Positions 2,207 through 32,000 of a stretch of 32,000 nucleotides of DNA are shown in pieces. Made by a program: the position numbers and the translations under genes. The notes under the pieces were generated by a model, which ran no database searches, was not told the DNA's origin, and worked only from the letters and a program-made list of their open reading frames with translations. Position 1 is the first letter of the stretch, and each line of letters opens with the position of its first letter. The DNA comes from Candidatus Saccharimonadota bacterium (GTDB lineage Archaea > Micrarchaeota > Micrarchaeia > Micrarchaeales > Micrarchaeaceae). Location: the NCBI GenBank assembly GCA_963705375.1, contig OY970071.1:330001-362000 (forward strand), written 5' to 3'.

Positions 2207-2207
2207 G

Positions 2208-8206: not shown

Positions 8207-8256
8207 CAGAAACAGGAATAGCAATAAAACGCATTGGTTTTAAGCAACCCCATTAC

Positions 8257-12135: not shown

Positions 12136-12143
12136 TTTATAAA
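12136..12143 (+). promoter_or_regulatory. TATA-box-like element (TTTATAAA) for the 2-oxoacid dehydrogenase operon
   Basis: It lies about 30-37 bp upstream of the only in-frame start candidate, a TTG at 12173. An in-frame stop at 12140 excludes any start further upstream. Confidence 0.45.
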
Positions 12144-12172
12144 TTTTTGCAGATATATGGTGCAGTGGTTGT

Positions 12173-13243: not shown

Positions 13244-13247
13244 TATT

Positions 13248-14213: not shown

Positions 14214-14217
14214 GCGT

Positions 14218-15435: not shown

Positions 15436-15448
15436 GTGTGTTGATTAC

Positions 15449-16816: not shown

Positions 16817-16852
16817 GATATAGAAACATGATGTTGTTAGTATACGCAGGAT

Positions 16853-17590
16853 GTGTGCATGGACCCGAAGCCTATGCAATTGCAGCACAAGAAATACACC
16901 ATAAGCTACAGGAACAGTGAAACGCCTGACGTCTGCCTGTTCAGGTTCAAATCCAGCGATTCGACAAAGGTGGACTTCAGGCCAGGCATGTTCGTGATGC
17001 TCGAATATTGTGATACTGTGGCCTGCACCACATTGTCACGCGCATATTCGATAGCTTCTGCACCACAGCAGGACTTTCTTGAATTCCTGATCAGCATGGT
17101 TCACGGCCCATTCACGTCGCACCTTGACACGGCGAAGGTCGGGGACGAATATTTCATCACAGGCCCTTATGGCCAGTTTGCGTTCTCGCCAGATACAGAC
17201 AAGAAGGTGCTTTTCATCGCCGGAGGCACTGGTGTTTCACCGTTCATGTCGATGCTCAGGGAGATAAAGCTGATGGGGTTGGACACTGACGTGTGCATGA
17301 TATACAGCATCAGATACCCAAACGAGATAATAAGGAAGGCAGAGCTCGAAGAGCTCGCCAGCCAGATAAAGCTAAAGCTAAGCGCGACAGTGACAAGGCC
17401 ACAGCCGGGTGACGGCTGGACAGGCGAAACCGGGCACATAGACGCCAGCATGATAAAGAGACTGGTGCCGGACTACGCGCAGAGGGTGCCGTACATATGC
17501 GGACCTCTGGCTTTTTCAAAGGCCATGAAAGAGGCTCTTGCCGCAGTAGGCGTGCCTGCCGCAGGAATCAAAGCAGACATATGGGGCTGA
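16853..17590 (+). CDS. FNR-family FAD/NAD(P)-binding oxidoreductase
   Basis: FAD-binding RAYSIAS, and NAD(P)-binding FIAGGTGVSPFMSM followed by CGP. The start is either GTG at 16853 or ATG at 16859. Confidence 0.75.
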   Translation: MCMDPKPMQLQHKKYTISYRNSETPDVCLFRFKSSDSTKVDFRPGMFVMLEYCDTVACTTLSRAYSIASAPQQDFLEFLISMVHGPFTSHLDTAKVGDEYFITGPYGQFAFSPDTDKKVLFIAGGTGVSPFMSMLREIKLMGLDTDVCMIYSIRYPNEIIRKAELEELASQIKLKLSATVTRPQPGDGWTGETGHIDASMIKRLVPDYAQRVPYICGPLAFSKAMKEALAAVGVPAAGIKADIWG

Positions 17591-17692
17591 ATAGACCATT
17601 CATAGGATCATGTACATTATTGAGCATTTGTTGCGGAGGGCGTTGGGACACAATTTCCACTTTTCGCACCCTGCGAACTAACCTATGGTGCG

Positions 17693-19471
17693 ATGATGAA
17701 AAAACTTGCGATATTCCTATCATTGGCGACACTTTCACTTTTCTTCTCAACTTCACTATTCAACGGCAAGCAGTATTTTTCTTTTGCAGCTTCGCTTGGT
17801 TTGATAGTTCTGGGAGGCTTGGCCGCAGTAATGTTTGTGGCACCATACACCACTAAAGAGCAAGGATGGCGCAAAGAAAGGATTCTGATAGGTGTTGCGG
17901 CGCTGTCTACGGCTTTGATTATTTGCGAATATGTTTTCGCTTACACAAACCCGATAGCGCTCGCGAGCGTGAATCAACGCAATGGAGCTGCAACGCTGAT
18001 CACCGCATGTTTATCTGCAGCCATATCCTTGTCAGGGATATACTTCGTAAGCAAGTTTGCTGAAGGCAGAAATCGAAAAGTCACCTACGCCCTTATTATT
18101 GCAGGTGCAGTCTTTATCGCGTTCATTGTTTATTTCTTAGTGGTAGGGAGAGGCTACGGCACTGGTGCTTCTGATGAATTGGCCTTTAACTACTATGCCT
18201 CACAGCTCTTCCTGAGAGGGCAGAACCCATACACAACCAGCATGCAGCCCGCGCTCTCTATGTATTACAGCGCCAGGCCGACCATAAGGCTGAATGGCAG
18301 CATAGAAGATGCATACGTGTACCCCGCATTCAGCTTTATTTCACTTGCACCTATTTCTGTCTTTGAACCGCACTCGATATCTGCGGCCTATTGGCTCACA
18401 ATCCTATTGAGCGTTTGCTCGGCATTCATAGTCTTCATAGCAGCAGGCAGGAAGGTCGAAGTGCTGCTTCCGATAGGCGTATGGCTGACGATAAACTTCT
18501 ATTTCATAACGACTTTTGTGGAGCCAATAGCAATTTCAGTGCTGCTGCTTCTCGCATATCTCAATAGAAAGAACGTGTTACGCGCAGGAGTTCTTGCAGG
18601 GTTTGCCGCAGGAACGACGCAGCTTGCATGGTTTGGCATTCCGTTTCTGCTCGTGCTTGTGCTCAGGGAGCAAGGCCGAGGCCAGTTTTCAAGACTGCTT
18701 GCAGCCGCTATCCTCACCTTCCTAGTGCTGAACAGCTACTATCTGATCGCGTCACCGAGAGCAGTCTTGTCCGATTTAATCGGGACATTCGCAGGATTGA
18801 CGGTCAACGGCACCACGCTGGTGCAGTTGCTGGTCTCATTCTATCCAGTCGCATATTCTTACGCCCTTTTCCTTTTTGTATCGTCGTTCGCGCTTCTTCT
18901 TTTGCTTTTCTATCTGCACACCGAGACACTGAAACCGCTGGCTGCAGTCGCACCATTTGCGATTTTCTTTCTCGCCTGGAGGAACCTTGTTACTTACGGA
19001 ATGCCATTCGTGCCTGTTTTGATAGCTCTGCGATACGCGCACGACGGCACCGGCTGCGAGGATATAAAAAAATACGACAAGTGGTTTGTACCTGCCTTCG
19101 TTGCGTTTGTGCTTATATCTGCAGTGCTGCTTGTATACGCCCATGCGAGTTATGAGCGCAGCAACACGCTCAAGATAAACAGCGCCGCGCTGACTGCACT
19201 AGCCTTGAAAAACGGATCAGAAGCCAACTACGTGATAATAAACATATCGAATGATGCGAACACCGAAAGAAACGTCTCCGTTTACATATACTCGATAAAT
19301 CCGTCGCTCTTCATAACAGTACCAGGCTACATGGGCCACAGTGGCGTGCCTGCAGAGTCTTACGCACTCTTCGCAGATGCATATCCGTTAGGCGTCGAGA
19401 ATAATACGCGGTTATTCATCCTTGCTTTCGCGAACGGATCAATAACGAGCAAGCACATTGACGGTAAATGA
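17693..19471 (+). CDS. Polytopic membrane protein, GT-C-type glycosyltransferase-like (DUF2029/GT87-like)
   Basis: More than 10 hydrophobic segments. First loop motif SDELAFNYYASQLFLRGQNPY resembles the D-x-x-Y...G-x-x-P-Y loop of DUF2029/GT87 enzymes. About 120 aa at the C-terminus are non-membrane. No WWDYG (AglB) motif. Confidence 0.5.
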   Translation: MMKKLAIFLSLATLSLFFSTSLFNGKQYFSFAASLGLIVLGGLAAVMFVAPYTTKEQGWRKERILIGVAALSTALIICEYVFAYTNPIALASVNQRNGAATLITACLSAAISLSGIYFVSKFAEGRNRKVTYALIIAGAVFIAFIVYFLVVGRGYGTGASDELAFNYYASQLFLRGQNPYTTSMQPALSMYYSARPTIRLNGSIEDAYVYPAFSFISLAPISVFEPHSISAAYWLTILLSVCSAFIVFIAAGRKVEVLLPIGVWLTINFYFITTFVEPIAISVLLLLAYLNRKNVLRAGVLAGFAAGTTQLAWFGIPFLLVLVLREQGRGQFSRLLAAAILTFLVLNSYYLIASPRAVLSDLIGTFAGLTVNGTTLVQLLVSFYPVAYSYALFLFVSSFALLLLLFYLHTETLKPLAAVAPFAIFFLAWRNLVTYGMPFVPVLIALRYAHDGTGCEDIKKYDKWFVPAFVAFVLISAVLLVYAHASYERSNTLKINSAALTALALKNGSEANYVIINISNDANTERNVSVYIYSINPSLFITVPGYMGHSGVPAESYALFADAYPLGVENNTRLFILAFANGSITSKHIDGK

Positions 19472-19502
19472 CCGGAATTTTGCCACAAAGTAAGGTAAAG
19501 CC

Positions 19503-19511
19503 CATCAAACC
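19503..19511. repeat. CATCAAACC copy 1 (target duplication, left of element E1)
   Basis: The same 9-mer occurs at all four junctions: 19503, 20769, 21043 and 26750. The shared string is CCATCAAACCG if the flanking bases, which could belong to the IRs, are counted. Confidence 0.8.
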
Positions 19512-19531
19512 GACTCTGGGACAAAAGTCGA

Positions 19532-19693
19532 TTACTTTGATTTCCGCACCATGACGTAAACCATCTTGCCAATGTACTCTTTAGGACAATCGATTTTTGC
19601 TCCTGTTCCGAACCGAGTTACAGGTTTCTCAAAAACAACTACAACATCGTCTCCGATTTTAAGTTTGTTCTTTATTACTTCAATTTTCCTCAT
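19532..19693 (-). CDS. Small transposon-encoded protein, DUF2080/AbrB-SpoVT-like (53 aa); below the ORF-track cutoff
   Basis: Hand translation: MRKIEVIKNKLKIGDDVVVVFEKPVTRFGTGAKIDCPKEYIGKMVYVMVRKSK. The pattern fEK.V..fG..AkI..PKeyiGK.VyV matches my memory of archaeal DUF2080. GGTGTG lies 4 nt upstream of the ATG. Confidence 0.55.
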   Translation of the reverse strand: MRKIEVIKNKLKIGDDVVVVFEKPVTRFGTGAKIDCPKEYIGKMVYVMVRKSK

Positions 19694-19756
19694 TTACCAC
19701 ACCGTATAATATATATTAATATATATTTAAATACTTTTCCTTTCAATAATAATATC

Positions 19757-20752
19757 ATGGCAAAAACCAAAAGGTTAACGAATAGACAGTTCCGAAGATT
19801 TTTCAAGGAGTTCAAGAAACTGATTGAGATTTACGGCGAAAAAACGGCAGAAAAACACACTGACTGGAAAACATATGAAGAAGAATATGCAAATAGGATA
19901 AGATATGTCGCGAAAGAGTTGAACATTCTTACAAAATCAGCAATAGACTCTATTGAGATGAAGGTATCCAAATTCGGAAGACCTGCAAAATTGTCTCTCC
20001 AACAGAAGGTGGTTGCGCTTATCCTAAAATCGATTTTCTGCAAAAACAACAGACCAATGGCCGGACTGATGTCCCTTTTTGGCGCATTTTGTGGCATTGA
20101 CATTAGTTACAAAACTGTCGAAAGGATGTATTCTGATGAACTGGTGCGAATTGTTTTGCACAACATGTTTATTCTGACGATAAAACGAAAATGTGATAAG
20201 AAAATAGATGTGAGCGGAGACGGAACGGGTTACACACTAACAGTAACGAAACATTACCGTACACAAGTCGATAAAGAAGGGTACAGGAAATTCGTGTATT
20301 CGTTCAATCTCATCGACATAAAGAATGGGTTGTACATATGTTATGGCTCGGGTATACGATCTGAAAAGGAAGCATTCGAAAATGCAATGAAGCTGCTCAG
20401 AAATGTAGAGGTGGCCACAGGGATAACAGTCAATAGTGCAAGGTTAGACAGGTACTATAGTTACCAATCAACTTTGAAGTATTTTGACGACAAAACTGTT
20501 TTGTACATAATCCCAAAGAGCAACACAACAATAAATGGCCCGTCTAGATGGAGGAAGATATTCAGACGGATGATGAAGGATCCTCTGTCCTACTTGATAG
20601 AGTACTACAAAAGGGAGAAGTCTGAGAATGGTTGGTCTGTAGATAAACGGATGGTTGGGTGGAAAATATGGCAGAAAAGAAATGACAGAATCGATACAGC
20701 AATAAGTTGTACTGCAACACTTCACAACTTATTCAGAATCGGTTATGGATGA
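19757..20752 (+). CDS. DDE transposase of E1
   Basis: VSGDGTGY, ARLDRYYS and REKSENG contexts. The block YIIPKSNTTINGPSRWRKIFRRM is homologous to YIPFKSNTTAIGGGNKARLWRRMF in the transposase at 22530-23723. Confidence 0.8.
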   Translation: MAKTKRLTNRQFRRFFKEFKKLIEIYGEKTAEKHTDWKTYEEEYANRIRYVAKELNILTKSAIDSIEMKVSKFGRPAKLSLQQKVVALILKSIFCKNNRPMAGLMSLFGAFCGIDISYKTVERMYSDELVRIVLHNMFILTIKRKCDKKIDVSGDGTGYTLTVTKHYRTQVDKEGYRKFVYSFNLIDIKNGLYICYGSGIRSEKEAFENAMKLLRNVEVATGITVNSARLDRYYSYQSTLKYFDDKTVLYIIPKSNTTINGPSRWRKIFRRMMKDPLSYLIEYYKREKSENGWSVDKRMVGWKIWQKRNDRIDTAISCTATLHNLFRIGYG

Positions 20753-20768
20753 CTTTTGTCCCAGAATC

Positions 20769-20777
20769 CATCAAACC
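20769..20777. repeat. CATCAAACC copy 2 (between E1 and E2)
   Basis: It directly abuts the IRR of E1 and the IRL of E2. Confidence 0.8.
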
Positions 20778-21042
20778 GAGTCTGGGACATAAGTCAACCA
20801 TTATTTTGGCACTCTACCTTTTCAGGTCTTCTATATTATCTCTGCCAAAATCTTTATCGTTTTGCATCCAAATTATATTGACCAGAGCAAGGCGGATCAG
20901 TAATAATGTCCGTTCTGTCGTCAAAGAACGATAGAAAAAGGCCGTTTAGACCGAGTGAATCCAAAAGGCATCTTAAAACAGCAAGTAGCCTTTTCTATTC
21001 TGGTTCTTATCTAGGAGTGAGAAGGACTTTTGTCCCAGAGTC
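20778..21042. mobile_element. MITE E2 (265 bp, non-autonomous relative of E1)
   Basis: IRL is GAGTCTGGGACATAAGTC. The reverse complement of IRR is GACTCTGGGACAAAAGTC (16/18, and identical to the IRL of E1). No credible ORF. Flanked by CATCAAACC. Confidence 0.8.
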
Positions 21043-21051
21043 CATCAAACC
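21043..21051. repeat. CATCAAACC copy 3 (between E2 and E3)
   Basis: It directly abuts the IRR of E2 and the IRL of E3. Confidence 0.8.
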
Positions 21052-21076
21052 GGCTTTGTGTAAAAAGGTGTGAAAA

Positions 21077-22078
21077 ATGATGGGTTCTTACACAATAAAA
21101 GGCGTTTTTACACAAAAATATGCTCTCTATCTTTATGCATCCAATACAAACCTTTTTAATAATCTCATCAGAAGTAGATATATGGTAGACAGTAAATTCT
21201 ATTACTATAGGATGTGGTGCAAAGATTATAAATTCAATAAAGACCTCAGTAATTTAGCTGCGAAACAAAATTGGCAAGAAAATACTAAAAAATACAAGAT
21301 ACCTCATGAGGATGGGACTTTAGAGGAAATCGCCATAGAAAAAGTTGATGATAGATATTTTGGCAAAATAATGAAAACAAAACCCAAAAAGCAACATTTT
21401 GGCAAAAATGAGGGGGAAGTTAAAGTCGGAGAGCTAAAAACAAAATTTGAATTGGTTGGAGAGAAAGAAAGAGATATAACATATTTTGCGTTTTTACCTT
21501 ATAAATTAAAAGACCTATTATTTTTAACAGAGATTCACTCTGGAAATAGGGGTATGAATACAATTAAAGAGTTCTTTAATAAATGCATGCCATCAACTTA
21601 TGAATTTAAATCTGAGCCACTTAAAACCCCCAAATTACTTGATTTGAAAAAATTTGCACCAAGAGAAATTAAAAAGATTCTACTCACGTATAAACGGGAT
21701 GTTCCAGAAGGCATACCTGTTGAAGATGCAATCAAAAAACTTAGGATTGAAGAAGATTGGCAAGTTATTGTTGGGGCAAAGATTAGATTGCAAAGAAAAA
21801 AACAGAATGTTTTTGTCACTCTTGACAACGCATTTAAAACGCTTTTTGGAAATGCATTAACTTCGGCAATCGATGAAGGGGTTGACCTTCCTAATATCCT
21901 ATCTAACATAGGTGTTGCTTTCAAAGAAGACAAAAGTAATAGAACACAGGATATTTTGAAAGACTATGAGAGGGAAGTGATATATCTGCAAAAGGGTAAT
22001 TTGAATGATGCGCAAATTAGTGATACTCTATTTGAAAAACTTACTACAAAACTAAAAGAGTTGGAGAAACATGGATAG
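21077..22078 (+). CDS. Hypothetical protein, 333 aa, Lys-rich, soluble, no recognisable domain
   Basis: Long ORF. GGTGTG lies 4 nt upstream of the ATG at 21077. An alternative ATG at 21182 has a TTTTAATAA box about 25 bp upstream. The stop overlaps the next ORF's start. Confidence 0.65.
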   Translation: MMGSYTIKGVFTQKYALYLYASNTNLFNNLIRSRYMVDSKFYYYRMWCKDYKFNKDLSNLAAKQNWQENTKKYKIPHEDGTLEEIAIEKVDDRYFGKIMKTKPKKQHFGKNEGEVKVGELKTKFELVGEKERDITYFAFLPYKLKDLLFLTEIHSGNRGMNTIKEFFNKCMPSTYEFKSEPLKTPKLLDLKKFAPREIKKILLTYKRDVPEGIPVEDAIKKLRIEEDWQVIVGAKIRLQRKKQNVFVTLDNAFKTLFGNALTSAIDEGVDLPNILSNIGVAFKEDKSNRTQDILKDYEREVIYLQKGNLNDAQISDTLFEKLTTKLKELEKHG

Positions 22079-22544
22079 CCGTTCAGTATTTGCTGATTTT
22101 ATATACACCTTAATTATCGTGAGTATATACTTTTTGATAATGTTTTACGGAGTTCATAATTCCAGTCCATTCTCATATTTACAAGATACTTCTGTAGTGT
22201 CCTCATTAATCATAATTATCACTTCGATATTGGGCGTTATTGCAGTTATAATTACATTATTCTCCGTTTTTGAAGAAGCATTCAAAAATAACGAGATTAT
22301 CAAAGCATTAAAGAAAAGAAACGATTTTATTCAGATTTTTAAAAGATATAGTGATTCTATTTTTGTTATGTTTTTTTCAATTATTGTGATAATTATTACT
22401 TGGATTGCATCCAACAATTTGAAACAATTAGCACCTTATCTATTACCAATAATGACTTTTGCCATAATCATCTCTTTTATTAGGACGTATAGATGCTTTA
22501 AAATATTCAAATTATTGACTGATGCAATCTCAGATAGTAGATGA
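22071..22544 (+). CDS. Small membrane protein, 157 aa, four predicted TM helices
   Basis: Hydrophobic segments: FADFIYTLIIVSIYFLIMFYGV, VVSSLIIIITSILGVIAVIITLFSVF, SIFVMFFSIIVIIITWIA, LAPYLLPIMTFAIIISFI. ATG at 22071 overlaps the upstream TAG (ATGGATAG), with GGAG upstream. Confidence 0.65.
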   Translation: MDSRSVFADFIYTLIIVSIYFLIMFYGVHNSSPFSYLQDTSVVSSLIIIITSILGVIAVIITLFSVFEEAFKNNEIIKALKKRNDFIQIFKRYSDSIFVMFFSIIVIIITWIASNNLKQLAPYLLPIMTFAIIISFIRTYRCFKIFKLLTDAISDSR

Positions 22545-23723
22545 ACTTTGAATTTCGTTGTTCACAATTACAATATTATGGCACAGCACTTTCAGCAACA
22601 ACTCATTAATCTGTGCCGTTTCTGTTTTGCTTCTTATAAGGTCGCTAAACTTTGCCTTTATCATACTGAATGTGCTCTCCACATTAGACCTTAGATGATA
22701 GTGGTTCAGAAATTCCTCTTGCTTTAACTGATAATACCAAAACATTCTGCGCCACAACCTTGCCTTGTTGCCACCACCTATTGCGGTTGTGTTGCTCTTG
22801 AAAGGGATATACGCCTGTCCGCCTATCTGTTGCACGGCGTTGTAGTTGGCAATTGAGGAATACGCCTTATCTGCCGAGACCTCGTTCATTATGAAGCCAG
22901 CGTCAAAAGTAGCATTTACAAGAGGTATAAACTTAGGGCAGTCCGCACCTTGACCTATCTCTGCCTCTACTCCAGTTATGATATTGGTTTTAACTCCTGT
23001 AATTATGTGTGCCTTAATCCAAACATGCTCTTTCTTCAGGTGGTGCTTCTCCCTGCAATAGTCGTTGAAGTGTGTAGTCCTAAAACCGCTACTGTCTACT
23101 GCGAATTTGTCCTCAACGTTTCTTAGGGGCAAGGACGATATTTGTATGAGCCTTGACAGAATTGGTGTTAATTCTGGCTTCTGTATGAAATGACCCACAG
23201 AAGCGAAGCAAGGCTTAGAAGATACAAGACTCTTATCCCTCGCTGTGCTAAGGTCGCTCATAAACCTGCGAAGTGAGAACTGGCTATACACCTTCAAAGC
23301 TGATGCAAAGATGAGGTCTCTATAACTAGTCTTGGGGCGTCCTGTTTCACTCTGCATAGGCTCTGGCACTTCTTGGCACAGGTCTTTCAGCAATTCCATA
23401 AACTTGGTCTTTTCCTGCTCCTGATTTATGTTGTAGTTGTGCCAGTCTTGCGGATAAACTTTCTTCTTTATCGTTATCGTGGTTTCATTACCTTGCTTGT
23501 CAAACCATTTGAGGACTATGGTCATTACGGCGTAGACGTGCTTGCACGGCTGTTGCCTCAATTCATAGTCAGGGCAGTTGCACTTGAAGCCACCTTCAAG
23601 ACTTCTGCTTACCGTATAAGTGCCTCTGCCTGACTGACTCGGCACTATCCAGTTGTAAGCATCCTTTTTCTGTATTTGGCGCATCTGTGCTATCTGTTGT
23701 CCTTTCAATCTTCGTTCATCCAT
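22530..23723 (-). CDS. SWIM zinc-finger + DDE transposase of E3
   Basis: SWIM motif CNCPDYELRQQPCKH. DDE contexts FAVDSSGF, VSADKAYSS, HLRSNVESTF. ATG at 23723 is preceded by GGTGTGCAA; the track start at 23729 is a GTG. Confidence 0.85.
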   Translation of the reverse strand: MDERRLKGQQIAQMRQIQKKDAYNWIVPSQSGRGTYTVSRSLEGGFKCNCPDYELRQQPCKHVYAVMTIVLKWFDKQGNETTITIKKKVYPQDWHNYNINQEQEKTKFMELLKDLCQEVPEPMQSETGRPKTSYRDLIFASALKVYSQFSLRRFMSDLSTARDKSLVSSKPCFASVGHFIQKPELTPILSRLIQISSLPLRNVEDKFAVDSSGFRTTHFNDYCREKHHLKKEHVWIKAHIITGVKTNIITGVEAEIGQGADCPKFIPLVNATFDAGFIMNEVSADKAYSSIANYNAVQQIGGQAYIPFKSNTTAIGGGNKARLWRRMFWYYQLKQEEFLNHYHLRSNVESTFSMIKAKFSDLIRSKTETAQINELLLKVLCHNIVIVNNEIQSSSTI

Positions 23724-23736
23724 TTGCACACCTTAC

Positions 23737-23795
23737 ATATCATACATATAATATATATTATATAGCAAAGGTATTTATACCTATGTGTATGATAT
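23737..23795. promoter_or_regulatory. Divergent promoter region with a 12-bp inverted repeat (ATATCATACATA ... TGTGTATGATAT)
   Basis: The arms at 23737-23748 and 23784-23795 match 11/12 as an inverted repeat. They lie between the transposase and the RHH/RM genes. A TATTTATA box sits at about 23773-23780. Confidence 0.4.
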
Positions 23796-23802
23796 ATATA
23801 AT

Positions 23803-23964
23803 ATGGTAAAAGCAAAAAAACGCGAGGACAAAGCAGTCGCCAAATCCATTACCATAACGATAAGGCATCAGCTATTCATAGAAGCCCGAAGCATAAATCT
23901 ATCTAAATTTGTTCAGAAGAAGTTAGACGAGGAAATAGAACTGCAAAAATGGACAGAAGGTTAG
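23803..23964 (+). CDS. Ribbon-helix-helix (CopG/Arc-like) small DNA-binding protein, 53 aa; below the ORF-track cutoff
   Basis: Hand translation: MVKAKKREDKAVAKSITITIRHQLFIEARSINLSKFVQKKLDEEIELQKWTEG. A beta-strand (ITITI) followed by two helices is the RHH pattern. It ends 4 nt before the RM gene's ATG. Confidence 0.6.
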   Translation: MVKAKKREDKAVAKSITITIRHQLFIEARSINLSKFVQKKLDEEIELQKWTEG

Positions 23965-23968
23965 ATTG

Positions 23969-26695
23969 ATGGACAAAGAGCTTCTAAAGAAGAACCTTAT
24001 CAAGAAGATTGAGGACTTCGATAGTAAAGACCATGATGGGGAATCTGAAAGGGATGTATGCAGAGCGTACATAGAACCACTTTTTTCTTATCTCGGCTGG
24101 GACATGAGTAATACGGATGAGGTAAAAGAGCAAAAGAACGAACCAGAGGGAAGACCAGATTATATTTTTTATCTGAATGGTAGTATTGCACTTTTCTTGG
24201 AAACAAAGAAAGTCAAAACGATTGATGAAGCTGACATAAAGCAAGCCCTAAACTATGGCAGAAGCCGAAATAAACGCTGGTCTGTTCTATCTAATTTTGA
24301 AGAAACAATAATCTTGATATGTGATACTAAAGAAACATCTCTATCGAATCATATCTTTAGGCGCATTTCCTATAAGAAAATGACTGAAGACTTAGACAGT
24401 TTGCTATTGCTATCAAGAGAAAGTTTTGAAACTGGTTTTATAGATTCTAAAGCGCAAGATGAAGGAAGGATAAAGAAAACCATCAGAATAGATGAAGAAC
24501 TACTTAACGACATTTTGCTTTGGAGAAAAGAGCTTATAAAGTCCATAAAGACCGAAAACAAAAAGCAATACTCAAAAGAAACATTAGAAGAAATAGCTCA
24601 GATACTACTCAATCGCATAATATTCATAAGAACAGTAGAAGATAGACGGATAGAAGCACAACCAGACGAAACTATAAAATCTATCCTAAATCAGTATGAA
24701 AATAACAAATCTGTAAAAATCAAGGATAAACTAAACAAACTGTTTGAAGAATACGATAAGACCTATGACAGTAAACTATTCACTTACGATGAGCATAATT
24801 TCGGGAATAGGCATGAAAGCGAGAAAGTAGAGATAGACAATAAAACATATTATAAGATACTAAAAGAGACTTACGAGAAGAACGAGATTTACTCGTACAA
24901 GTTCGGGGATATTGATGCAGATATTCTTGGAGATATGTATGAACGGTATATAGGAAATATAGATGAGTTTAGAAAGAAACAAGGAATTTATTATACACCT
25001 ACTTGGGTAGTAGATTACATAGTAAATAATACAATCGGGCTTATGTTTGGCAATAAGTCTAAAAAAACAATTTCAGAACTGAAAATATTGGATATGGCTT
25101 GCGGTTCTGGGTCATTTCTCCTAAAGGCTTTTGACAGTTTTAATGACCATTACAAATTAAACAGAAAGAAATATTTTCAGTCTGGTCTGGATTTAATTAG
25201 CGAATCTTCAATAATAACACAAAAAACTAAGATACTAAAAGAGCACATATTCGGCGTAGACCTTGACGTAAAAGCAGTAGAGATTGCACAACTAAACCTA
25301 TTGTTGAAGATAGCAGAAACAAAACATAGATTGCCTGATTTGAAGAATAATATAAAGCAAGGAAACTCATTAGTTGAGGACAAGAACGTTGATACCGAAT
25401 ATGCTTTTGACTGGGAAAGTAATTTCAAAGAGATAATGGATAATGGTAGATTTGACATAGTAATAGGTAATCCACCATACTCCTTTACCAGAGATGCTGA
25501 TTTTACAGACTTAGTAAAAGAGTATGCTAATGAGCATTATTTCAAAGGGTTAGATTCAGTATCTAAGGGTCATGCAAGGCAGTCAGGAAAAATCAATTTA
25601 TATTCCCTATTCTTAATTAGAGGAATTCAATTACTAAAAGAAAACGGCGTATTAGGATTTATCATACCAAATAATCTACTGAGAACTACAACCTATGACA
25701 TAATAAGAGAATTTATATTGAAGAACTGCAAGATATTGCAGATAGTAGATTTAGGTGCGGGAGTTTTTGAGAATGCAACAGTAGCGACCACAATAATTAT
25801 ACTTCAAAAAGAGAAAAGCCAAATCAAAAGAAATAGAAATAAAGTATCAATAATATATGACGTAGTTAATTTTGACTTGTCGAACAAGAAGTATAAAACT
25901 CATACAGTCGGGCAAAATGAGTTTTTAGAGAATACAAGCCATGCTTTCAACATAACATCAGATAAAGAAGCAACAGAATTGCTTAATACGGTGGGCAAAA
26001 ATTCCAAACTATTGGGCGATATAACCACAATTCATGCTGGTGGGATTGCAACAGGTTCAAATAAGAAAGAAATGATACTTGATTATCCTAAAAACTCTAA
26101 ATACAAACCCATGTTAGAAGGAAAGGACATAAAACCATTTCTTGCAGAGTTCTCTAATAGATATATCTTATATGACAGAGAAAAATTGAGGAGAGCGAGG
26201 GACGAAAATATATTCTTAAGTTCGGAGAAGGTAATAACCCAGAGAATTGGAGGAGGGAAACGGGTTATTGTTGCTTCTTATGATGACAAACAGTACTATA
26301 CGTTTAATTCTACTAATTCCATTCTTCAGAAAGATAAGGAATATTCACTAAAATACATAACAGCGTTGCTAAATTCTAATCTTCTTAACTATTATTATGT
26401 TAATAAATTTACAAATGAATCTATGCTGACGGTTAATATATCCAAAACCTTTTTAGAGAACCTACCAATCAAGAGGGTAGATGAATCCAAACAAAACCCT
26501 TTCATAAAATTAGTAGATGAAATTTTGGAATTATCCAAAACTATGAATAAGGATTATAATACTAATTCGGGGATAGAAAACAGAGACAAGATAGTGGCAA
26601 AGATGGATGCAATAAATGAATTGGTATACGACTTATATGGTTTAACAGAAACCCAAAAGAAACTTGTAAAAGCATGGATAGGTGTCGGAAAATGA
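23969..26695 (+). CDS. Type IIG restriction-modification enzyme (PD-ExK nuclease fused to an N6-adenine gamma-class methyltransferase and a specificity domain)
   Basis: N-terminal nuclease motif RPDYIF...ALFLETKK (PD...ExK). SAM motif I LDMACGSGSFLL. Catalytic motif IV IGNPPY. A long C-terminal region plausibly recognises the target. Eco57I/MmeI-like architecture. Confidence 0.85.
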   Translation: MDKELLKKNLIKKIEDFDSKDHDGESERDVCRAYIEPLFSYLGWDMSNTDEVKEQKNEPEGRPDYIFYLNGSIALFLETKKVKTIDEADIKQALNYGRSRNKRWSVLSNFEETIILICDTKETSLSNHIFRRISYKKMTEDLDSLLLLSRESFETGFIDSKAQDEGRIKKTIRIDEELLNDILLWRKELIKSIKTENKKQYSKETLEEIAQILLNRIIFIRTVEDRRIEAQPDETIKSILNQYENNKSVKIKDKLNKLFEEYDKTYDSKLFTYDEHNFGNRHESEKVEIDNKTYYKILKETYEKNEIYSYKFGDIDADILGDMYERYIGNIDEFRKKQGIYYTPTWVVDYIVNNTIGLMFGNKSKKTISELKILDMACGSGSFLLKAFDSFNDHYKLNRKKYFQSGLDLISESSIITQKTKILKEHIFGVDLDVKAVEIAQLNLLLKIAETKHRLPDLKNNIKQGNSLVEDKNVDTEYAFDWESNFKEIMDNGRFDIVIGNPPYSFTRDADFTDLVKEYANEHYFKGLDSVSKGHARQSGKINLYSLFLIRGIQLLKENGVLGFIIPNNLLRTTTYDIIREFILKNCKILQIVDLGAGVFENATVATTIIILQKEKSQIKRNRNKVSIIYDVVNFDLSNKKYKTHTVGQNEFLENTSHAFNITSDKEATELLNTVGKNSKLLGDITTIHAGGIATGSNKKEMILDYPKNSKYKPMLEGKDIKPFLAEFSNRYILYDREKLRRARDENIFLSSEKVITQRIGGGKRVIVASYDDKQYYTFNSTNSILQKDKEYSLKYITALLNSNLLNYYYVNKFTNESMLTVNISKTFLENLPIKRVDESKQNPFIKLVDEILELSKTMNKDYNTNSGIENRDKIVAKMDAINELVYDLYGLTETQKKLVKAWIGVGK

Positions 26696-26749
26696 GTTTT
26701 TACACAAGCAGGTTAGTTTTTACACAGAAAGAGGTTAATACACAAAGCC

Positions 26750-26758
26750 CATCAAACC
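26750..26758. repeat. CATCAAACC copy 4 (right of E3)
   Basis: It directly abuts the IRR of E3. Confidence 0.8.
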
Positions 26759-27034
26759 GAAAGCCATATATATCTAGATAGCTCTATATCTATCAGAAGA
26801 AGAAGTTCAGATAAGGTACAGCAGTTGAATAAATCTTATCCTTGAACAAGTCAAGAAAGCACATAAAATATAAAGGTTTCATAACGGAAAGTTCTGAAAT
26901 TTTTAGCTGCTTTTGCAGCAGTCTGGGCGGCTTGAAATCTGTTAGCCGCTGAAGTTCTTCTTCTCTGATTTTTAATAAATAAACTTATTCTAGAAATTTC
27001 TTTCTGAAAGTTTGCATTAAAACGACAAAGCAGT

Positions 27035-27412
27035 TTACAGCAATATATAGAGCACGAGAGCCAAGAGTGCCGCAGTAACCAGCGAATAGAGATGTATCTT
27101 CATCGCTTTTTGCACGTCCTGCGCATGTGCCTTGTCGCTGGTCACTCTGCCCTTTTCATCGCTAGAGCCGGAAAAATCAAACATACTCGCAGCGGCAAAC
27201 CCTGCGCAGAATTTGAAGCGACCCTGGTAAATACCCTCAGAGGCCATAGTAAACGGAATAAAACAAAAGAGCAGAAGCCATCTTTGCAAGGAGAAGAAAT
27301 TTATCAGGCCGGCAAACAAAAGTGCGATGGCAAATCCGGCAATGCCAAGCACGTATCTCTTCCGTATCTCGTTTTTTCCTATGTTGCAAACACCGGGCAC
27401 ATACTTGCTCAT
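27035..27412 (-). CDS. Small membrane protein (125 aa, about 3 TM)
   Basis: Hydrophobic segments (LGIAGFAIALLFAGLINFF, WLLLFCFIPF, LVTAALLALVLYILL). N-terminal GVCNIGKNEIRKR. A TTTAAAT box lies about 27 bp upstream on the minus strand. Confidence 0.6.
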   Translation of the reverse strand: MSKYVPGVCNIGKNEIRKRYVLGIAGFAIALLFAGLINFFSLQRWLLLFCFIPFTMASEGIYQGRFKFCAGFAAASMFDFSGSSDEKGRVTSDKAHAQDVQKAMKIHLYSLVTAALLALVLYILL

Positions 27413-27522
27413 GATTATCTATAAAAGTTGCATGATTTAAACCTAGCGCACTTTGAGCGAAAGCGTGCAATAGCCCGCACATCGTACAAAATCTTAAATA
27501 CAGTAGGAGAACAAAGTCGAAC

Positions 27523-28131
27523 ATGAAGAGTTGGGAGAACATTTTCAAGAAAGCGGGCAGATACTATGACAAGCCGTCAAAAGATGTCGTCAAGCTGGCG
27601 CGTATGCTGAAAAGGCAGAAAGTGAAGAGGATCCTGGATCTCGGCTGCGGGTCTGGAAGGCACTTGGTCTATCTTGCAAAGCTAGGCTTTGACGTTTACG
27701 GATTTGATTCTTCGCCAACCGGGGTCAGAATGGCAAAGGAATGGCTTGAGAAGAAGCACCTCAAGGCACACGTTCTGCTCCATGACATGGGCAAAAGATT
27801 TCCGTATGAAGATAGATTCTTTGATGCAATAATCTCGACGCAAGTATTACACCATAACCTTCCAGGCAGGATAAAGGCCACCATAAGAGAGATCGAAAGG
27901 ACGATAAAGCCGAAAGGCATTCTGTTCTTCACGGTGCCAAGCCACAAAGACAAAGGAGTGTTTTACAGACTGGCAGGCTTCAGAACATACGCACCATTAA
28001 ACGGAGATGAGAAAGGCATACCCCATTTCTACTTCACAGAGGAGCTTATCAGGAAATTCTTCAGCGATTTTCACATACGCAAGATCTACTCCACAGAACA
28101 TAAGCGCTTTGCCGTGATTGCAACCAAATGA
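27523..28131 (+). CDS. Class I SAM-dependent methyltransferase
   Basis: Motif I ILDLGCGSGRH, post-I acidic residue in GFDVYGFD, and motif II/III-like DAIISTQVLHH and LKPKGILFF-type strands. Confidence 0.8.
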   Translation: MKSWENIFKKAGRYYDKPSKDVVKLARMLKRQKVKRILDLGCGSGRHLVYLAKLGFDVYGFDSSPTGVRMAKEWLEKKHLKAHVLLHDMGKRFPYEDRFFDAIISTQVLHHNLPGRIKATIREIERTIKPKGILFFTVPSHKDKGVFYRLAGFRTYAPLNGDEKGIPHFYFTEELIRKFFSDFHIRKIYSTEHKRFAVIATK

Positions 28132-28823
28132 TGCAGATGATCTTTATGCAGTATAAACCCATGCTAGTTCGTGGCGTGCAGCTCGTAGTGATTTTCGCGA
28201 TATATGTTGGTCTTTACCTTGCAGGATCGAAAGGAGTGCTTGCCTCGCGCGCCTTGCTCTTTTTCTCCATGTACTTTGCCTACGTGATAATAAACGCGGC
28301 AATAATGCTAAACCATCAGCCGGAGCTGATAGGCGCCAGAAGCCATTTCGGCAAGGCAGAAAAATGGGACAAGGCAATAATGCTTGCTTACACTGTGTTG
28401 TTGTTCACGATATTCTACGCGGCCGGGCTTGATGCAATGCAAACGGGGAGCCTGCAAAGTTTGCCGTATATGATAATTGGTGTGATGCTATTTCTTATCG
28501 GAGGCGCGATGATAACATGGGCAATGTATGTCAACAAGTTCTTCGAGAGCGGGGCAAGGATACAGAAGGATAGGAAGCAGACGGTCATAAAAACGGGACC
28601 GTATGCAATAATACGCCATCCAGGCTATGCAGGCATGATTATGTTCTTCATCTCCATCCCTTTGATTTTTGGATCGGTAAAGGCACTTGAAGCCGGAGCC
28701 CTTATTGTTGCGCTCTTGATCATACGGACATATTTGGAAGACTCGATGTTGCGTAAAAAGCTAATCGGCTACGGCATCTACGCATGCAAAGTCAGATACA
28801 GGTTAGTTCCGCTTGTTTGGTAG
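28128..28823 (+). CDS. Isoprenylcysteine carboxyl methyltransferase (ICMT)/PEMT-family membrane methyltransferase
   Basis: Polytopic, with the C-terminal signature TGPYAIIRHPGYAGMIMFF...YLEDSML. ATGA overlap with the upstream MTase. Confidence 0.7.
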   Translation: MMQMIFMQYKPMLVRGVQLVVIFAIYVGLYLAGSKGVLASRALLFFSMYFAYVIINAAIMLNHQPELIGARSHFGKAEKWDKAIMLAYTVLLFTIFYAAGLDAMQTGSLQSLPYMIIGVMLFLIGGAMITWAMYVNKFFESGARIQKDRKQTVIKTGPYAIIRHPGYAGMIMFFISIPLIFGSVKALEAGALIVALLIIRTYLEDSMLRKKLIGYGIYACKVRYRLVPLVW

Positions 28824-28877
28824 GACCTTGTCAGAAAATAGTCGCAGAACATGTAATGCCTGACAGCTTAGCAAGTG

Positions 28878-29636
28878 TCATCTGACCGGGCAAACAGGCG
28901 CAAGCTCCATGACAAAGTACGTCTGGTTGCTAGTCTTGACTGTGCAGTTGTATTGTGCGAAGAACTGCGGTATGTTTATTCCTGCGGATGGTATCTCTGT
29001 GACAGGGCACATGCCGCCGGCTGGGCCAAGAACCTCGTATGTGGGCCCTGTTGCGAAATAGTAGCCGTAATCGGTTATATTGCGATTTGCCAGCCCTTGC
29101 CAGTGTTCAGGCGCACTGCTTACGATTTGGCTCACGAATTCACTCGGCGACTGATTAACAGGATAGAACACTTCCTCTACGAATGCATAATACGTAAGAC
29201 CGTTATAAGTATAGCCTTCGGGCCAATACGTGCCGAAATCTTGGGCGTAGCCGTAATGGCTTAGTTCATAATTGGCCGACATCGTCTCAAACCTGGTCTG
29301 CGAGAACCGGCTTAGCAGGGGACAGTAGCGGTACAGTGCGCCGCGTGTGCTGCTGACATTCTGGAAGAATTCAGTAGCCCATGTGGTATTCTGAGAGGTT
29401 TCGTATATTGTGGTAGTCGTTGTAGGGATTGATGATGTTGTGGTTTGCACAGAAGTCGTATAAGTGATGAGGATACTTGTCGGGGGAGTCGTGCTCGTGG
29501 TCGGGGAAATAGTCCGCCCCAGCACACCTGATGGCGCAATTGCTATGAAATAGATTGCTGCCACTACAAAGATTCCTGCAAGAGCAATAATGAGCCATTT
29601 TCCTATTGACATGCAACGACCTTGTAAATATTTCAT
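28878..29636 (-). CDS. Secreted or anchored hypothetical protein with a Thr-rich linker
   Basis: N-terminal hydrophobic anchor WLIIALAGIFVVAAIYFIAIA, then TSTTPPTS...TTTSSIPTTTTT, then an aromatic-rich globular domain. The start may be the ATG at 29612. Confidence 0.6.
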   Translation of the reverse strand: MKYLQGRCMSIGKWLIIALAGIFVVAAIYFIAIAPSGVLGRTISPTTSTTPPTSILITYTTSVQTTTSSIPTTTTTIYETSQNTTWATEFFQNVSSTRGALYRYCPLLSRFSQTRFETMSANYELSHYGYAQDFGTYWPEGYTYNGLTYYAFVEEVFYPVNQSPSEFVSQIVSSAPEHWQGLANRNITDYGYYFATGPTYEVLGPAGGMCPVTEIPSAGINIPQFFAQYNCTVKTSNQTYFVMELAPVCPVR

Positions 29637-29703
29637 TGCTTAAACTTTGGTGCCCAGCCCACCTTGTGGCAGCACGTATAGGCACAATCAAACTTGAAAC
29701 TAC

Positions 29704-30576
29704 TCACTGCACTGTTGTCAAGTAAGTTTCTAGTTTATACCTTGATTCTAAATCCTTGGCAGGACGTTCGGATATCTCCTTAAGATTACCCCGTTTCCTC
29801 TTACCACTGCTTTCACCCGAAAGAGGCTCCAGTTGAACGGTCTTTGCTTTTGGATCGTAATCGGTAAGCTCTGCCGGAATGAACAAGCCGTGCTCAGAGC
29901 GCAGCGCCACTAGGTCTCCTATTTTTGCATTGCCTTTGGCGATATCTGAGCCCGAAACTACCTTGGGCCGCTCATCAAGCCCTCTAGCCCAGTCTGCGGC
30001 CTTCGTGCCCCTCCTGCTTTGCTCCGCAGATATGCTCTCAAGAGGATTCCAGGGATTAGAAATCGGTTCATCGTAGAGCAGATCAGAGTATCTGTATGAT
30101 ACGAAGTCTGTCAAGTGCTTCTCATTCGGAGGCATGAGGCCTTTATTGCATTTTGAGAGTATCGGCCTTAGATCAGAGATTATTCTTATAGCTTCGGCCC
30201 TGCTTGGCACATAAATCGTCAATAGTTTTCCTTGCTGGACAGTGCCATCTTGGGGCATCGGTACGCTTGGTTTCCATATTTTAAAAATGGCATTCGCTTT
30301 TCCAAGCGCAGGTACTGCTTCTTTAAGGAAATTCAGGGTATCCTGTTCTGAAACATTAACATGTAGTTTGTAGCCAGATGATCGGTCTTGTAGGATCTCT
30401 GTATTGTCAGAATGAATGAAAGCGTCAGTCGCGCTTGCGATATATTCGATTTTCATTCCTCCGATGCCTTGCTCGAATATATTAATCACTTCGATGTCGC
30501 TTACCTTGCTATAAGGAGTGATCCCGTCCATATCATCACCAACATATTCGATCTCAGAAATGATATATATTACCAT
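29704..30576 (-). CDS. Hypothetical protein, 290 aa, with a possible K-x-H lyase-like (HopA1/OspF/LanKC-N-like) core
   Basis: GYKLHVNV...FKIWK...QQGKLLTIYVP resembles, from memory, the GWKLH.S...FK...GKFIT.YP pattern of that fold. The C-terminal part is small and looks SH3/KOW-like. Weak call. Confidence 0.45.
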   Translation of the reverse strand: MVIYIISEIEYVGDDMDGITPYSKVSDIEVINIFEQGIGGMKIEYIASATDAFIHSDNTEILQDRSSGYKLHVNVSEQDTLNFLKEAVPALGKANAIFKIWKPSVPMPQDGTVQQGKLLTIYVPSRAEAIRIISDLRPILSKCNKGLMPPNEKHLTDFVSYRYSDLLYDEPISNPWNPLESISAEQSRRGTKAADWARGLDERPKVVSGSDIAKGNAKIGDLVALRSEHGLFIPAELTDYDPKAKTVQLEPLSGESSGKRKRGNLKEISERPAKDLESRYKLETYLTTVQ

Positions 30577-30632
30577 GTGTAGGGCATTATTTTAACCTTT
30601 CTTGGCCATTTTCAGAAAAAATTCAGTGCTCC

Positions 30633-30714
30633 CTTTGGATTTGAATCTGAAGTAAGTAGCAATTAAGATATTTAAGCAAGCATGGTTGAATTCTTCTGAG
30701 TTCGAACCCGAAAA
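30633..30714 (+). repeat. Direct repeat R1 (82 bp)
   Basis: About 95% identical to 31846-31928. Contains AAGATATTTAAGC (TATA-like) and a degraded copy of the GGTTCGAA/TTCGAACC hairpin, with 1 nt deleted. Confidence 0.8.
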
Positions 30715-30776
30715 TTTATTTCCTATTACGTGCCTTGGTCCTACATCTAAATACTTTCCAGTAAAATAAACGCATA

Positions 30777-31508
30777 ATGGAGAAAACGACAGAGCACCCG
30801 ACGATACTTGATCAGAAAGGCCAACTAAGTATTCCTATCATTTCCAGTTCTGAAAAGTACAAATCTCTAGAACAGTTATATGAGAAGGCGATGAGTGAAC
30901 TTGACGCCTTCTTCGAATTGAATTGGACAAATGATCGTCCAAGACTAATCGTAGTCCGTGACCGGGAAACGATAGACCAGCTCAAAGGGTATGAAACAAA
31001 GGAATGGCTCAGAGCCTGGATTGACAATGGTGACGTTTATATTCTGGATAAGGACCGTCTCGCCAAGGAAAGGTTCCACGGGTACTTGGACGAAAAACAG
31101 TTGAATGATGAATATTTCAAATTGATAAAACATGAATTAGCTCATTTGTTCTCTCAGCGTCTTGCAGGTTCTTCTAATTCAGAACCTCATCGGGATGCGG
31201 GACCTCTCTGGCTCTGGGAGGGCATTTCTATCTACCTTGCCGGGCAGATTTCTGATATGAAAACTAATCTGAGCACTTTCCTAGAGTATTATAATAAGAG
31301 CGGGGATAGTATGTATACTGAAGGAGGTCTTGCAGTAAAATACCTTGTTGAAAATCATGGGAAAGACAAGTTGTTAGAGCTCATCAGATCCATGAACACG
31401 ATCAATTCTGAAGATGAGTTCAAAAAGACATTCAAACAGATTTATGGGTTTGAGTTAGATTATAGTAGCTTTACAAATACAGACAAAACACTTACAAAGA
31501 AGAATTGA
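30777..31508 (+). CDS. Putative zinc metallopeptidase (HExxH, peptidase-MA-like)
   Basis: HELAH at IKHELAHLF, followed by WLWEGISIYLAG. This matches the HExxH...W..EG.A.Y pattern of the Peptidase_MA_2-type family, recalled from memory. Confidence 0.5.
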   Translation: MEKTTEHPTILDQKGQLSIPIISSSEKYKSLEQLYEKAMSELDAFFELNWTNDRPRLIVVRDRETIDQLKGYETKEWLRAWIDNGDVYILDKDRLAKERFHGYLDEKQLNDEYFKLIKHELAHLFSQRLAGSSNSEPHRDAGPLWLWEGISIYLAGQISDMKTNLSTFLEYYNKSGDSMYTEGGLAVKYLVENHGKDKLLELIRSMNTINSEDEFKKTFKQIYGFELDYSSFTNTDKTLTKKN

Positions 31509-31845
31509 TGCAAATTCTGCAATATCTCTATGGCCTGGCAGGCTCGCCATGAAAGATTTTGCGCTGTGCCGCATTTTCTCATTGAGGCCCGGTAATTATC
31601 TCAACAAGCGCTCAGTTTTCCTTTCGCCCAACGCGTTCGCCCCGGTCATGAGGGGCGTTGCGGCAACACACCTTAAGCTTTTCAGGTAGATTCGGACTCG
31701 GGATTGTTGAAGAAAGAATCAGATGCTCCCAACGGAATTTGGATCCGTGTTTCGAGCGTGATAGGCTCGCGTCCTTGACCGGTTTCAGCGTTGTTTTCCA
31801 GCTTCATTTTATCGCCGCACTTCTGCGCAAAGCCTTAAGCATTTT

Positions 31846-31928
31846 CTTTGGATTTGAATCCGAAGTAAGTAGCGTTTAAGATATTTAAGCAAGCATGGTT
31901 CGAATTCTTCTGAGTTCGAACCCGAAAA
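31846..31928 (+). repeat. Direct repeat R2 (83 bp)
   Basis: It differs from R1 by 3 substitutions and 1 indel. It has a perfect 8-bp hairpin: GGTTCGAA (31897-31904) and TTCGAACC (31915-31922). Confidence 0.8.
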
Positions 31929-32000
31929 GTTGGATATGCTATTCGGGATTTCGAACACTTTTGAGATGAAGGAGAAATGACACTCCGAAATTAATTCTTT

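Follow-up and report, generated by a model that had tools for sequence, protein, structure and literature searches.

The subject of this study is a 5698-bp element, here termed E3, which occupies positions 21052-26749 of a 32,000-nucleotide stretch of contig OY970071.1 (assembly GCA_963705375.1, positions 330,001 to 362,000). The whole stretch is referred to as the window, and all positions are window positions unless a relative's locus is named. E3 contains five genes: a transposase in the middle on the minus strand, two overlapping genes on its left, and on its right a ribbon-helix-helix (RHH) gene followed by a type IIG restriction-modification gene. An earlier reading of the same DNA (the original prediction) had described an IS903-like cargo transposon with a defence payload in an archaeon. 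The features of E3, including its junctions, are as follows.

21043..21051: left copy of the target-site duplication, CATCAAACC, which is also the right flank of the neighbouring element MITE-B
21043-21062: left junction, reading gtcCATCAAACC and then GGCTTTGTGTAAAAAGG
21052..21114, plus strand: left end, with the tip GGCTT, a direct repeat TGTGTAAAAA (21057-21066) and two inverted copies, TTCTTACACA (21085-21094) and TTTTTACACA (21105-21114)
21182..22078, plus strand: open reading frame (ORF) 1, 298 amino acids (aa), predicted RexA-like fold; the mechanical ORF runs from 21077, and homologues start at the invariant Met36
22071..22544, plus strand: ORF2, 157 aa, proposed RexB-like membrane partner, with an 8-nt overlap with the ORF1 stop
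22530..23723, minus strand: transposase, 397 aa, with matches to SWIM (E 1.9e-6) and DDE_Tnp_1 (E 6e-19); SWIM zinc-finger residues C48, C50, C60 and H62; catalytic residues D210, D285 and E349 with a Y-R-E-K signature
23724..23798: divergent control region with the palindrome TACATATCATACATATA (23734-23750) / TATGTGTATGATATATA (23782-23798)
23785..23964, plus strand: RHH gene, 59-aa ORF, likely start Met7 at 23803, weak CcdA match
23966..26695, plus strand: type IIG restriction-modification enzyme, 909 aa, with Eco57I, N6_Mtase, TaqI_C and HSDR_N domains
26697..26749, minus strand: right end, with the tip GGCTT and three direct copies read inward from the tip, TGTGTATTAA (26735-26744) and TGTGTAAAAA (26717-26726 and 26697-26706)
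26739-26758: right junction, reading TTAATACACAAAGCC and then CATCAAACCgaaag
26750..26758: right copy of the target-site duplication, CATCAAACC

Boundaries and base composition

E3 begins with GGCTTTGTGTA (21052-21062) and ends with its exact reverse complement TACACAAAGCC (26739-26749), so that the two form an inverted repeat of 11 bp without mismatch. Directly outside it on both sides lies CATCAAACC (21043-21051 and 26750-26758), a perfect direct repeat of 9 bp. The perfect termini and the 9-bp duplication named in the original prediction were thus both read directly from the sequence. A scan of the whole window for inverted repeats of at least 11 bp accompanied by 9-bp flanking direct repeats returned two pairs, namely E3 and a pair with the same 9-mer formed by the neighbouring insertion sequence (IS) IS-A and the miniature inverted-repeat transposable element (MITE) MITE-B. 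No such pair was obtained in 100 shuffles of the window. Without the elements, the empty site is expected to read ...GGTAAAGCC-CATCAAACC-GAAAGCCAT....

The GC content of E3 was 0.346, compared to 0.493 for window positions 1-19502 and 0.451 for 27035-32000. The description of E3 as an AT-rich block therefore holds relative to a host value of about 0.49, but its proposed left limit does not: the block begins at about 19500 rather than at 21052, because an IS (19512-20768) and a MITE (20778-21042) lie directly left of E3. The composition within E3 is mosaic, with a GC content of 0.44 in the transposase gene and 0.28-0.33 in the cargo genes.

A family of elements with common ends and variable cargo

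In a scan of species-representative genomes, transposases with 72% identity to that of E3 were found in metagenome-assembled genomes of Micrarchaeota and Marsarchaeota. The similarity of the window to these loci was limited to 22551-23961, the transposase and the RHH gene, and stopped at both stop codons; across the intervening control region (23724..23798) the nucleotide similarity to relatives was continuous. In loci L001, L002 and L003 (L-numbers label the loci of relatives in this analysis), GGCTTTGTCC tips and perfect 9-bp duplications were located by an inverted-repeat/duplication script around 2.9-3.0 kb of DNA, with passenger ORFs on both sides of the core that mostly differed between the elements. 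A metagenome scan with the transposase alignment yielded 80 loci at 43-60% identity, of which 27 were delimited by the script through (G/A)GCTTTG tips and perfect 9-bp duplications, no two of them the same. Together with L001-L003, as well as L008 and L009, which were delimited by eye and have one tip-mismatched end each, this gives 32 delimited relatives, or 33 elements including E3. All delimited relatives have (G/A)GCTTTG tips and measure 2483-7290 bp, and 30 of the 32 show perfect 9-bp duplications that differ from one another. None is close to the ~1.6 kb expected for a bare IS. In public data, more than 6000 homologues of the transposase are present.

The outer ends of E3 recur at other sites. 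L008, complete at 6.0 kb and with an 80%-identical transposase, has the tips (A/G)GCTTTGTGTAAAAA and the 9-bp duplication CCACTATAC at another site, and L007 has the same right end as E3, 92% identical, at a third site. As in a unit transposon, one pair of ends encloses the transposase together with the passengers, and these ends are kept at different sites (L008, L007, L138, L140, and others). The homologous copies, that is L008, L007 and thirty more elements, identify the outer repeats as the mobile boundaries; of the thirty, all but L009 were located together with 9-bp duplications. No nested IS was found around the transposase and RHH block, and the six inverted 10-mers at the transposase (one mismatch allowed; shuffle mean 10) were not accompanied by direct repeats. 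The view that the transposase lacks inverted repeats of its own and that the whole 5.7 kb is a single mobile unit is thus supported. We consider it highly probable that E3 is one autonomous DNA transposon of the transporter IS or unit-transposon kind within a large family of transposons that have a SWIM-zinc-finger and DDE transposase of the IS5 superfamily, distantly related to the IS903 group; its nature as a single-unit transposon is judged to be likely to nearly the same degree.

Copies with different cargo, for which a search had been recommended, were found as well. The closest relatives (transposase identities of 94%, 81%, and 80%) all carry an RHH gene and a type IIG enzyme beside the transposase. 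Cargo reassorts between elements. L008 has a type IIG gene on the right, and its left slot holds two genes unrelated to those of E3. L140 has a TGTCC-type left end, the ORF1-ORF2 pair, a 75%-identical SWIM-DDE transposase and an RHH gene, which is followed by a different gene. The element L096 7885-10298 (identical to L097) is decayed and retains the family tips, the ORF1-ORF2 pair and a truncated transposase remnant. L138 has an E3-type left end and the pair at another site, with no transposase called downstream; it was likewise counted, from position 186, as a derivative keeping family tips and the pair.

Cargo was scored by domain matches only, because greedy ORF calling gave antisense artefacts in GC-rich relatives. 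Among 103 cargo ORFs, matches were obtained to N6_Mtase (3), N6_N4_Mtase (2), C5 DNA methylase (2), Eco57I (2), HTH_3 (3), Vsr, PD-(D/E)XK nucleases, UvrD helicase, Peptidase_M78, a superinfection-immunity protein, and PIN; HTH/M78 pairs also occur. Specific examples are a Vsr-C5 methylase fusion with a UvrD/PD-(D/E)XK protein (L020), a C5 methylase with an EcoO109I-like endonuclease and an HhH-GPD glycosylase (L064), and an 800-aa HSDR_N, N6_Mtase and Methylase_S protein (L022). From these matches and examples, restriction-modification genes are recurrent cargo of the family.

The modules also occur outside the family. L093 232-3863 (the same element in L094 and L095) is a 3.6-kb IS6-family transposon with IS26-like tips, GGCTTTGTTGCA / GGTTCTGTTGCA; its duplication, TTTTTTAG, is 8 bp long, and its right cargo is a GNAT acetyltransferase. 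In L093/L094, the ORF1-ORF2 pair (74% nucleotide identity) and the RHH gene (65% amino-acid identity) flank a different transposase, which scored 129 bits with NF033587 (IS6 family; cutoff 125). The N-terminus of this transposase resembles the SWIM region of E3 (29% identity over 70 aa, E 4e-7). Judged by these sequence matches, the Rex-like and RHH modules are common to transposons with unrelated catalytic cores.

End architecture

The ends of E3 had been regarded as simple inverted repeats; instead, each is an array of three short repeats. At one end, three direct copies of 10-12 bp start at positions 6, 24 and 44 from the tip. At the other end, the copies lie at position 6, at ~36 and at 55/56; the copy at 36 is inverted, and the orientation of the one at 55/56 varies, E3 and some relatives having it inverted and other relatives direct. 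E3 fits this family layout exactly. The spacing is kept in most elements, and the repeat motif varies from element to element (TGTGTA, TGTCC, TGCCC, TGCAC, and others). A constant spacing with a varying motif would look like co-evolving protein-binding sites, for which the SWIM domain or the RHH protein is the putative binder. In the mechanism we propose, the transposase would bind the three short repeats per end, which are spaced by ~20 bp and read TGTGTAAAAA in E3, would cut at the GGCTT tips, and would insert the element into a 9-bp staggered cut, whereby the duplication CATCAAACC would arise. In L071, L072, L079 and L082, the transposase core has the reverse orientation with respect to the two end types, and the end with three direct repeats adjoins the 3' end of the transposase gene.

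The transposase and its relationship to IS903

The catalytic DDE residues and the C-C-C-H residues of the zinc finger are invariant in the transposase alignment, and all of them are present in E3. The best NCBIfam model was the IS903-type model NF033579, covered from profile position 3 to 288 of 289. With 97 bits versus a cutoff of 140, E3 stays below the curated threshold of this model, a reservation about its affinity to the group. For comparison, IS903B, whose sequence was taken from a plasmid copy with the ends GGCTTTGTTGAATAAATC, scored 329 bits, and BLASTP of the E3 transposase against that of IS903B gave 22% identity over ~186 aa (E 5e-7). The terminal repeats of both elements begin with GGC (GGCTTTGTGTA in E3, GGCTTTGTTGAATAAATC in IS903B) and share an identical tip octamer, GGCTTTGT. 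The IS903 group is known to produce 9-bp duplications (ISfinder), and this length was found in E3 and thirty relatives. The shared octamer, the duplication length and the shared best model of the DDE_Tnp_1 transposases therefore support a distant affinity to the IS903 group, so that the label "IS903-like" is justified only in this distant sense, at 22% identity and below the cutoff.

Three features argue against classing E3 as an IS903-group IS: its transposase has an extra N-terminal SWIM domain of ~95 aa, its ends have multiple repeats, and cargo is ever present. Where IS903B has one 18-bp inverted repeat, the E3 family has arrays of three repeats, and whereas IS903B comprises 1057 bp and a single gene, members of the E3 family measure 2.5-7.3 kb and always carry passengers. 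With 5698 bp and five genes, E3 itself is far from a compact single-gene IS of ~1 kb, and no member is shorter than 2483 bp.

The RHH gene had been counted among the passengers. It is conserved together with the transposase in the close subclade (66-68% identity in L001-L003) and hence belongs to the core there. This statement is limited to the close subclade and L093, because the RHH hidden Markov model matched the close subclade only and was silent in the distant members (43-60% identity). The RHH protein would probably regulate the divergent promoter region.

Cargo in the left and right slots

Relatives of ORF1 are few (7 close ones, and 33 cluster representatives in a profile search). A first structural model based on 7 sequences was unusable, with a predicted local distance difference test (pLDDT) score of 48.7, and was replaced by an AlphaFold2 model from a 29-sequence alignment (pLDDT 84, predicted template modelling score 0.81). 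Compared to the Protein Data Bank, the sole significant match of this model was lambda RexA (8twq_B, E 5.6e-6, probability 1.0, full length). In a viral library, the model had matches (E 5e-9 to 8e-7) to five proteins of tailed phages, all uncharacterised and 277-322 aa long. Hydropathy analysis of ORF2 gave four hydrophobic segments (4-29, 38-72, 92-117, and 119-138), and its homologues have 157-158 aa in the four cases seen, three of which were aligned at 71-79% identity. For comparison, RexB has a mass of 16 kDa and four transmembrane helices (PMC11077077). With its 157 aa, four hydropathy segments and overlap with ORF1, ORF2 has the properties of the small four-helix partner in RexAB. As in lambda RexA/RexB, a soluble protein of ~300 aa with a RexA-like predicted fold is followed by a ~150-aa protein with four hydrophobic segments.

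Some results count against this assignment. The global TM-score between the ORF1 model and RexA was 0.33; PADLOC, Pfam and NCBIfam gave no matches to ORF1 or ORF2; and hhalign of the two families against lambda RexA and RexB was negative, with no similarity at the sequence level. The assignment is therefore of moderate strength and based on fold and gene architecture only. RexA consists of two domains with a flexible hinge and swivel loops (PMC11077077), and this flexibility could account for the low TM-score. Unlike lambda Rex, the E3 pair has no detectable sequence similarity to the phage proteins and resides on an archaeal transposon rather than in a prophage beside a repressor. Overall, fold and gene architecture slightly favour the interpretation of ORF1-ORF2 as a RexAB-like abortive-infection pair. 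The left slot, from the left end to the 3' end of the transposase gene, would then hold a translationally coupled RexA-like/RexB-like abortive-infection module. The left side had been described as an unknown two-gene module; two genes it is, and the pair resembles lambda RexA/RexB in fold and architecture. The earlier suggestion of a defence payload gains from a Rex-like pair accompanying the type IIG enzyme.

The identity of the right-hand cargo agrees with what had been predicted. PADLOC classified the 909-aa protein as REase_MTase_IIG (E 7e-97), and nuclease, methyltransferase and TaqI_C specificity domain lie in one polypeptide with the catalytic motifs in place: a PD-x13-ExK nuclease motif (ETK; residues 64-81), motif I DMACGSG (376), and NPPY (502). 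By its sequence, the enzyme is very probably encoded intact. It resembles MmeI/BsaXI-like enzymes of the Eco57I family, in which a single chain likewise comprises a PD-ExK nuclease, an N6-adenine methyltransferase of the gamma class and a specificity domain of the TaqI_C type; the nearest solved relative by sequence, RM.BsaXI, was matched only with E 3.5e-15. In contrast to known type IIG enzymes, it is transposon cargo downstream of an RHH gene. Its gene begins 2-5 nt after the RHH stop, and this right slot, directly downstream of the RHH gene, is probably co-transcribed with it. Between the window and L006, nucleotide identity was 80% over 22549-25356, and similarity ended before the specificity domain, a pattern that fits a changed recognition specificity on an otherwise conserved element.

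Neighbouring elements and the shared 9-mer

Four copies of CATCAAACC, in tandem register at 19503, 20769, 21043, and 26750, separate host DNA, IS-A, MITE-B, E3, and host DNA, in this order. The neighbouring elements have the following features.

19512-20768: IS-A, 1257 bp, with 18-bp inverted repeats GACTCTGGGACAAAAGTC
19532-19693: DUF2080 transposase-associated ORF of IS-A, 53 aa, on the strand opposite to the IS-A transposase
19757-20752: IS-A transposase, 331 aa, with a weak IS5_2 match and a weak NF033579 match (37 bits)
20778-21042: MITE-B, 265 bp, non-coding, with the inverted repeats of IS-A, GAGTCTGGGACATAAGTC / GACTTTTGTCCCAGAGTC

The simplest reading is that of three successive insertions by enzymes making 9-bp staggered cuts, each into the duplicate that still kept the original host flank. 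E3 is not specific for a CATCAAACC site, because its relatives use unrelated 9-mers. After insertion, the left junction of E3 reads AAAGCC-N9-GGCTTT, a symmetric context. A scan of viral contigs for the inverted repeat of IS-A gave single matches only, consistent with chance.

Alternative explanations

Several observations weigh against our interpretation of E3 as a recently mobile unit. The window contains a single copy of E3, and an empty site was not obtained: the 592-aa host protein, once its start was corrected, led only to the 5.3-kb Logan contig L010, which ends 30 bp inside the neighbouring IS. Only the perfect ends point to recent mobility, because there is a single copy and no empty site. 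Moreover, the 9-mer that bounds E3 also bounds IS-A and MITE-B, and simple random targeting does not account for this. Searches of public data for exact matches to the transposase, with either of two alternative start codons, gave no identical copy, and an exact search with the uncorrected 592-aa host protein was likewise negative. With the missing second copy, E3 might be an immobile fossil whose transposase is inactive and whose restriction-modification and Rex-like genes are kept by the host. However, the transposase is not truncated, each of its invariant catalytic and zinc-finger residues is in place, and the tips and the duplication are perfect; a fossil is in our view unlikely. The four identical 9-mers around three different elements in tandem could likewise be taken as att-like recombination cores, with E3, IS-A and MITE-B as recombinase-integrated cassettes. 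Yet the annotated ORFs of 19500-27000 include no identified integrase or recombinase, each of the three elements has its own inverted repeats, the thirty relatives show thirty different 9-bp duplications, E3-type elements occur at sites without CATCAAACC (L007, L008, and L138), and a 9-bp duplication is a known product of the IS903 group. This explanation is very improbable.

Still less credible is a simple IS of ~1.5 kb, consisting of transposase and RHH gene, inside a non-mobile island with coincidental outer 11-bp and 9-bp repeats. It takes up the finding that the first relatives shared nucleotide similarity only over the transposase and RHH block (22551-23961). This block, however, has no inverted repeats or duplication of its own, every delimited relative has its tips and 9-bp duplication beyond the passenger genes, the outer ends of E3 are common to L008 and L007, and the outer repeat pair arose in none of the 100 window shuffles. 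As regards the left slot, ORF1 and ORF2 could serve transposition rather than defence, as a RexA/RdgC-like DNA-binding protein and a membrane partner that aid target choice or regulation. In favour of this, lambda RexA has an RdgC-like fold and shows non-specific DNA binding (PMC11077077), and the pair occupies the same position beside transposases whose catalytic parts are unrelated, of the IS5-like type in the window and in L140 and of the IS6 family in L093. On the other hand, none of the 32 delimited relatives was found to carry the pair, although their ends are intact and their duplications mostly perfect, and it persists in decayed elements without a transposase (L096 and possibly L138). 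An accessory role thus appears even a little less likely than the fossil, and we retain the Rex-like pair as the favoured assignment.

Host and significance

The window encodes geranylgeranylglyceryl phosphate synthase (TIGR01769, 190 bits versus a cutoff of 162). For a neighbouring ORF, the archaeal RqcH model was the only match, below its cutoff. The product of the 592-aa gene left of the insertion matches a protein on a 1.2-Mb contig at 100% identity, and its named homologues, at 34-36% identity, are from Micrarchaeota. The predicted archaeal origin is supported by the synthase and by the sub-cutoff RqcH match, and on these sequence comparisons the host is likely a Micrarchaeota-like member of the DPANN archaea.

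In bacteria, transposons with integral passenger genes are among the main routes by which genes spread. E3 resembles bacterial transporter IS and unit transposons in that its transposase and integral passengers lie together between one pair of ends. It differs from the transporter IS, a concept established for bacteria (PMC9330008), in that the family is archaeal and centred on DPANN, that every delimited member carries extra DNA besides the transposase gene, that there are two defined cargo slots, and that no resolvase or other accessory transposition gene was identified. With Tn7-like transposons, whose cargo is rich in defence genes (PMC8649781), the family shares several putative transposase-binding repeats per end, an asymmetric layout, and defence-rich cargo. 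In contrast to Tn7, E3 has neither TnsA, TnsB and TnsC (no such domains were found in any of its proteins) nor target-selector genes, it has a single IS5-type DDE transposase, its duplication is 9 bp rather than 5 bp, and it is much smaller.

A 2019 survey of thaumarchaeal mobile elements described transposons with passenger genes as undetected in archaea (PMC6563490), and a 2026 census of archaeal IS does not mention passenger genes, SWIM, or IS903 (PMC13343696). Since the 2019 survey, Tn7-family elements are the only ones reported in archaea, in a 2025 preprint (bioRxiv 10.1101/2025.07.27.667033). In the literature on SWIM, IS5 and archaea, with ISfinder outside the comparison, no description of the E3 family was found. 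The family is large and apparently undescribed, a family-level variant of the transporter IS or unit transposon. Every delimited member carries extra genes, often restriction-modification systems, and the family would represent a second, much simpler archaeal route of passenger-gene spread beside the Tn7-family elements. It provides a concrete candidate vehicle for defence genes among small-genome DPANN archaea, perhaps also between them and their hosts, a compact system in which the recognition of multi-repeat ends by a SWIM-domain DDE transposase can be studied, and, for archaea, a candidate abortive-infection system of the Rex-like type. More tentatively, and with somewhat more doubt than belief, we suggest that these are widespread defence-shuttling transposons centred on DPANN and other archaea, characterised by three-repeat ends, a SWIM transposase and two cargo slots. 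Exchangeable would then be both the cargo, comprising restriction-modification systems, a Rex-like pair and toxin-type genes, and even the catalytic core, IS5-like or IS6-family behind a related SWIM N-terminus, and the family would bring Rex-type abortive infection into archaea.

Further observations

Many insertion sites of the family are palindromes centred on the duplication, as in L049, L051, L052, L064, L067, L092 and L022, for example CCCTCT-CCCGTGGGG-AGAGGG. L071, L072 and L082 share the same kind of repeated inverted-repeat sequence, TTTAG-AGTTCAACC-TTTAG. The 2.5-kb member L009 3907-6423, with the duplication ATGCGGATA, lies among many small genes with Hjc, TBP-like and C5-methylase matches, on a contig of virus- or plasmid-like appearance. 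On predicted viral IMG/VR contigs, two right ends of the E3 type were located (L141 3534-3565 and L142 8785-8816); no homologues of E3 proteins were found in the stored stretch of these contigs.

A separate simple IS at ~10559-11576 of the window has the ends GGTTCTGTAGAAATCCT / AGCCCTGTAGAAATCCT and the 9-bp duplication CATCGGACA, which shares CATC..AC with CATCAAACC. Its 310-aa transposase (10662-11594) scored 174 bits with NF033579, and the element is a genuine member of the IS903 group because this is above the cutoff. Finally, the 276 bp that separate E3 from the next host gene are AT-rich and contain a 16-nt inverted repeat, AGAAGAAGAAGTTCAG / CTGAAGTTCTTCTTCT (26795-26964), with its arms 138 nt apart, which could be another small element or a terminator.

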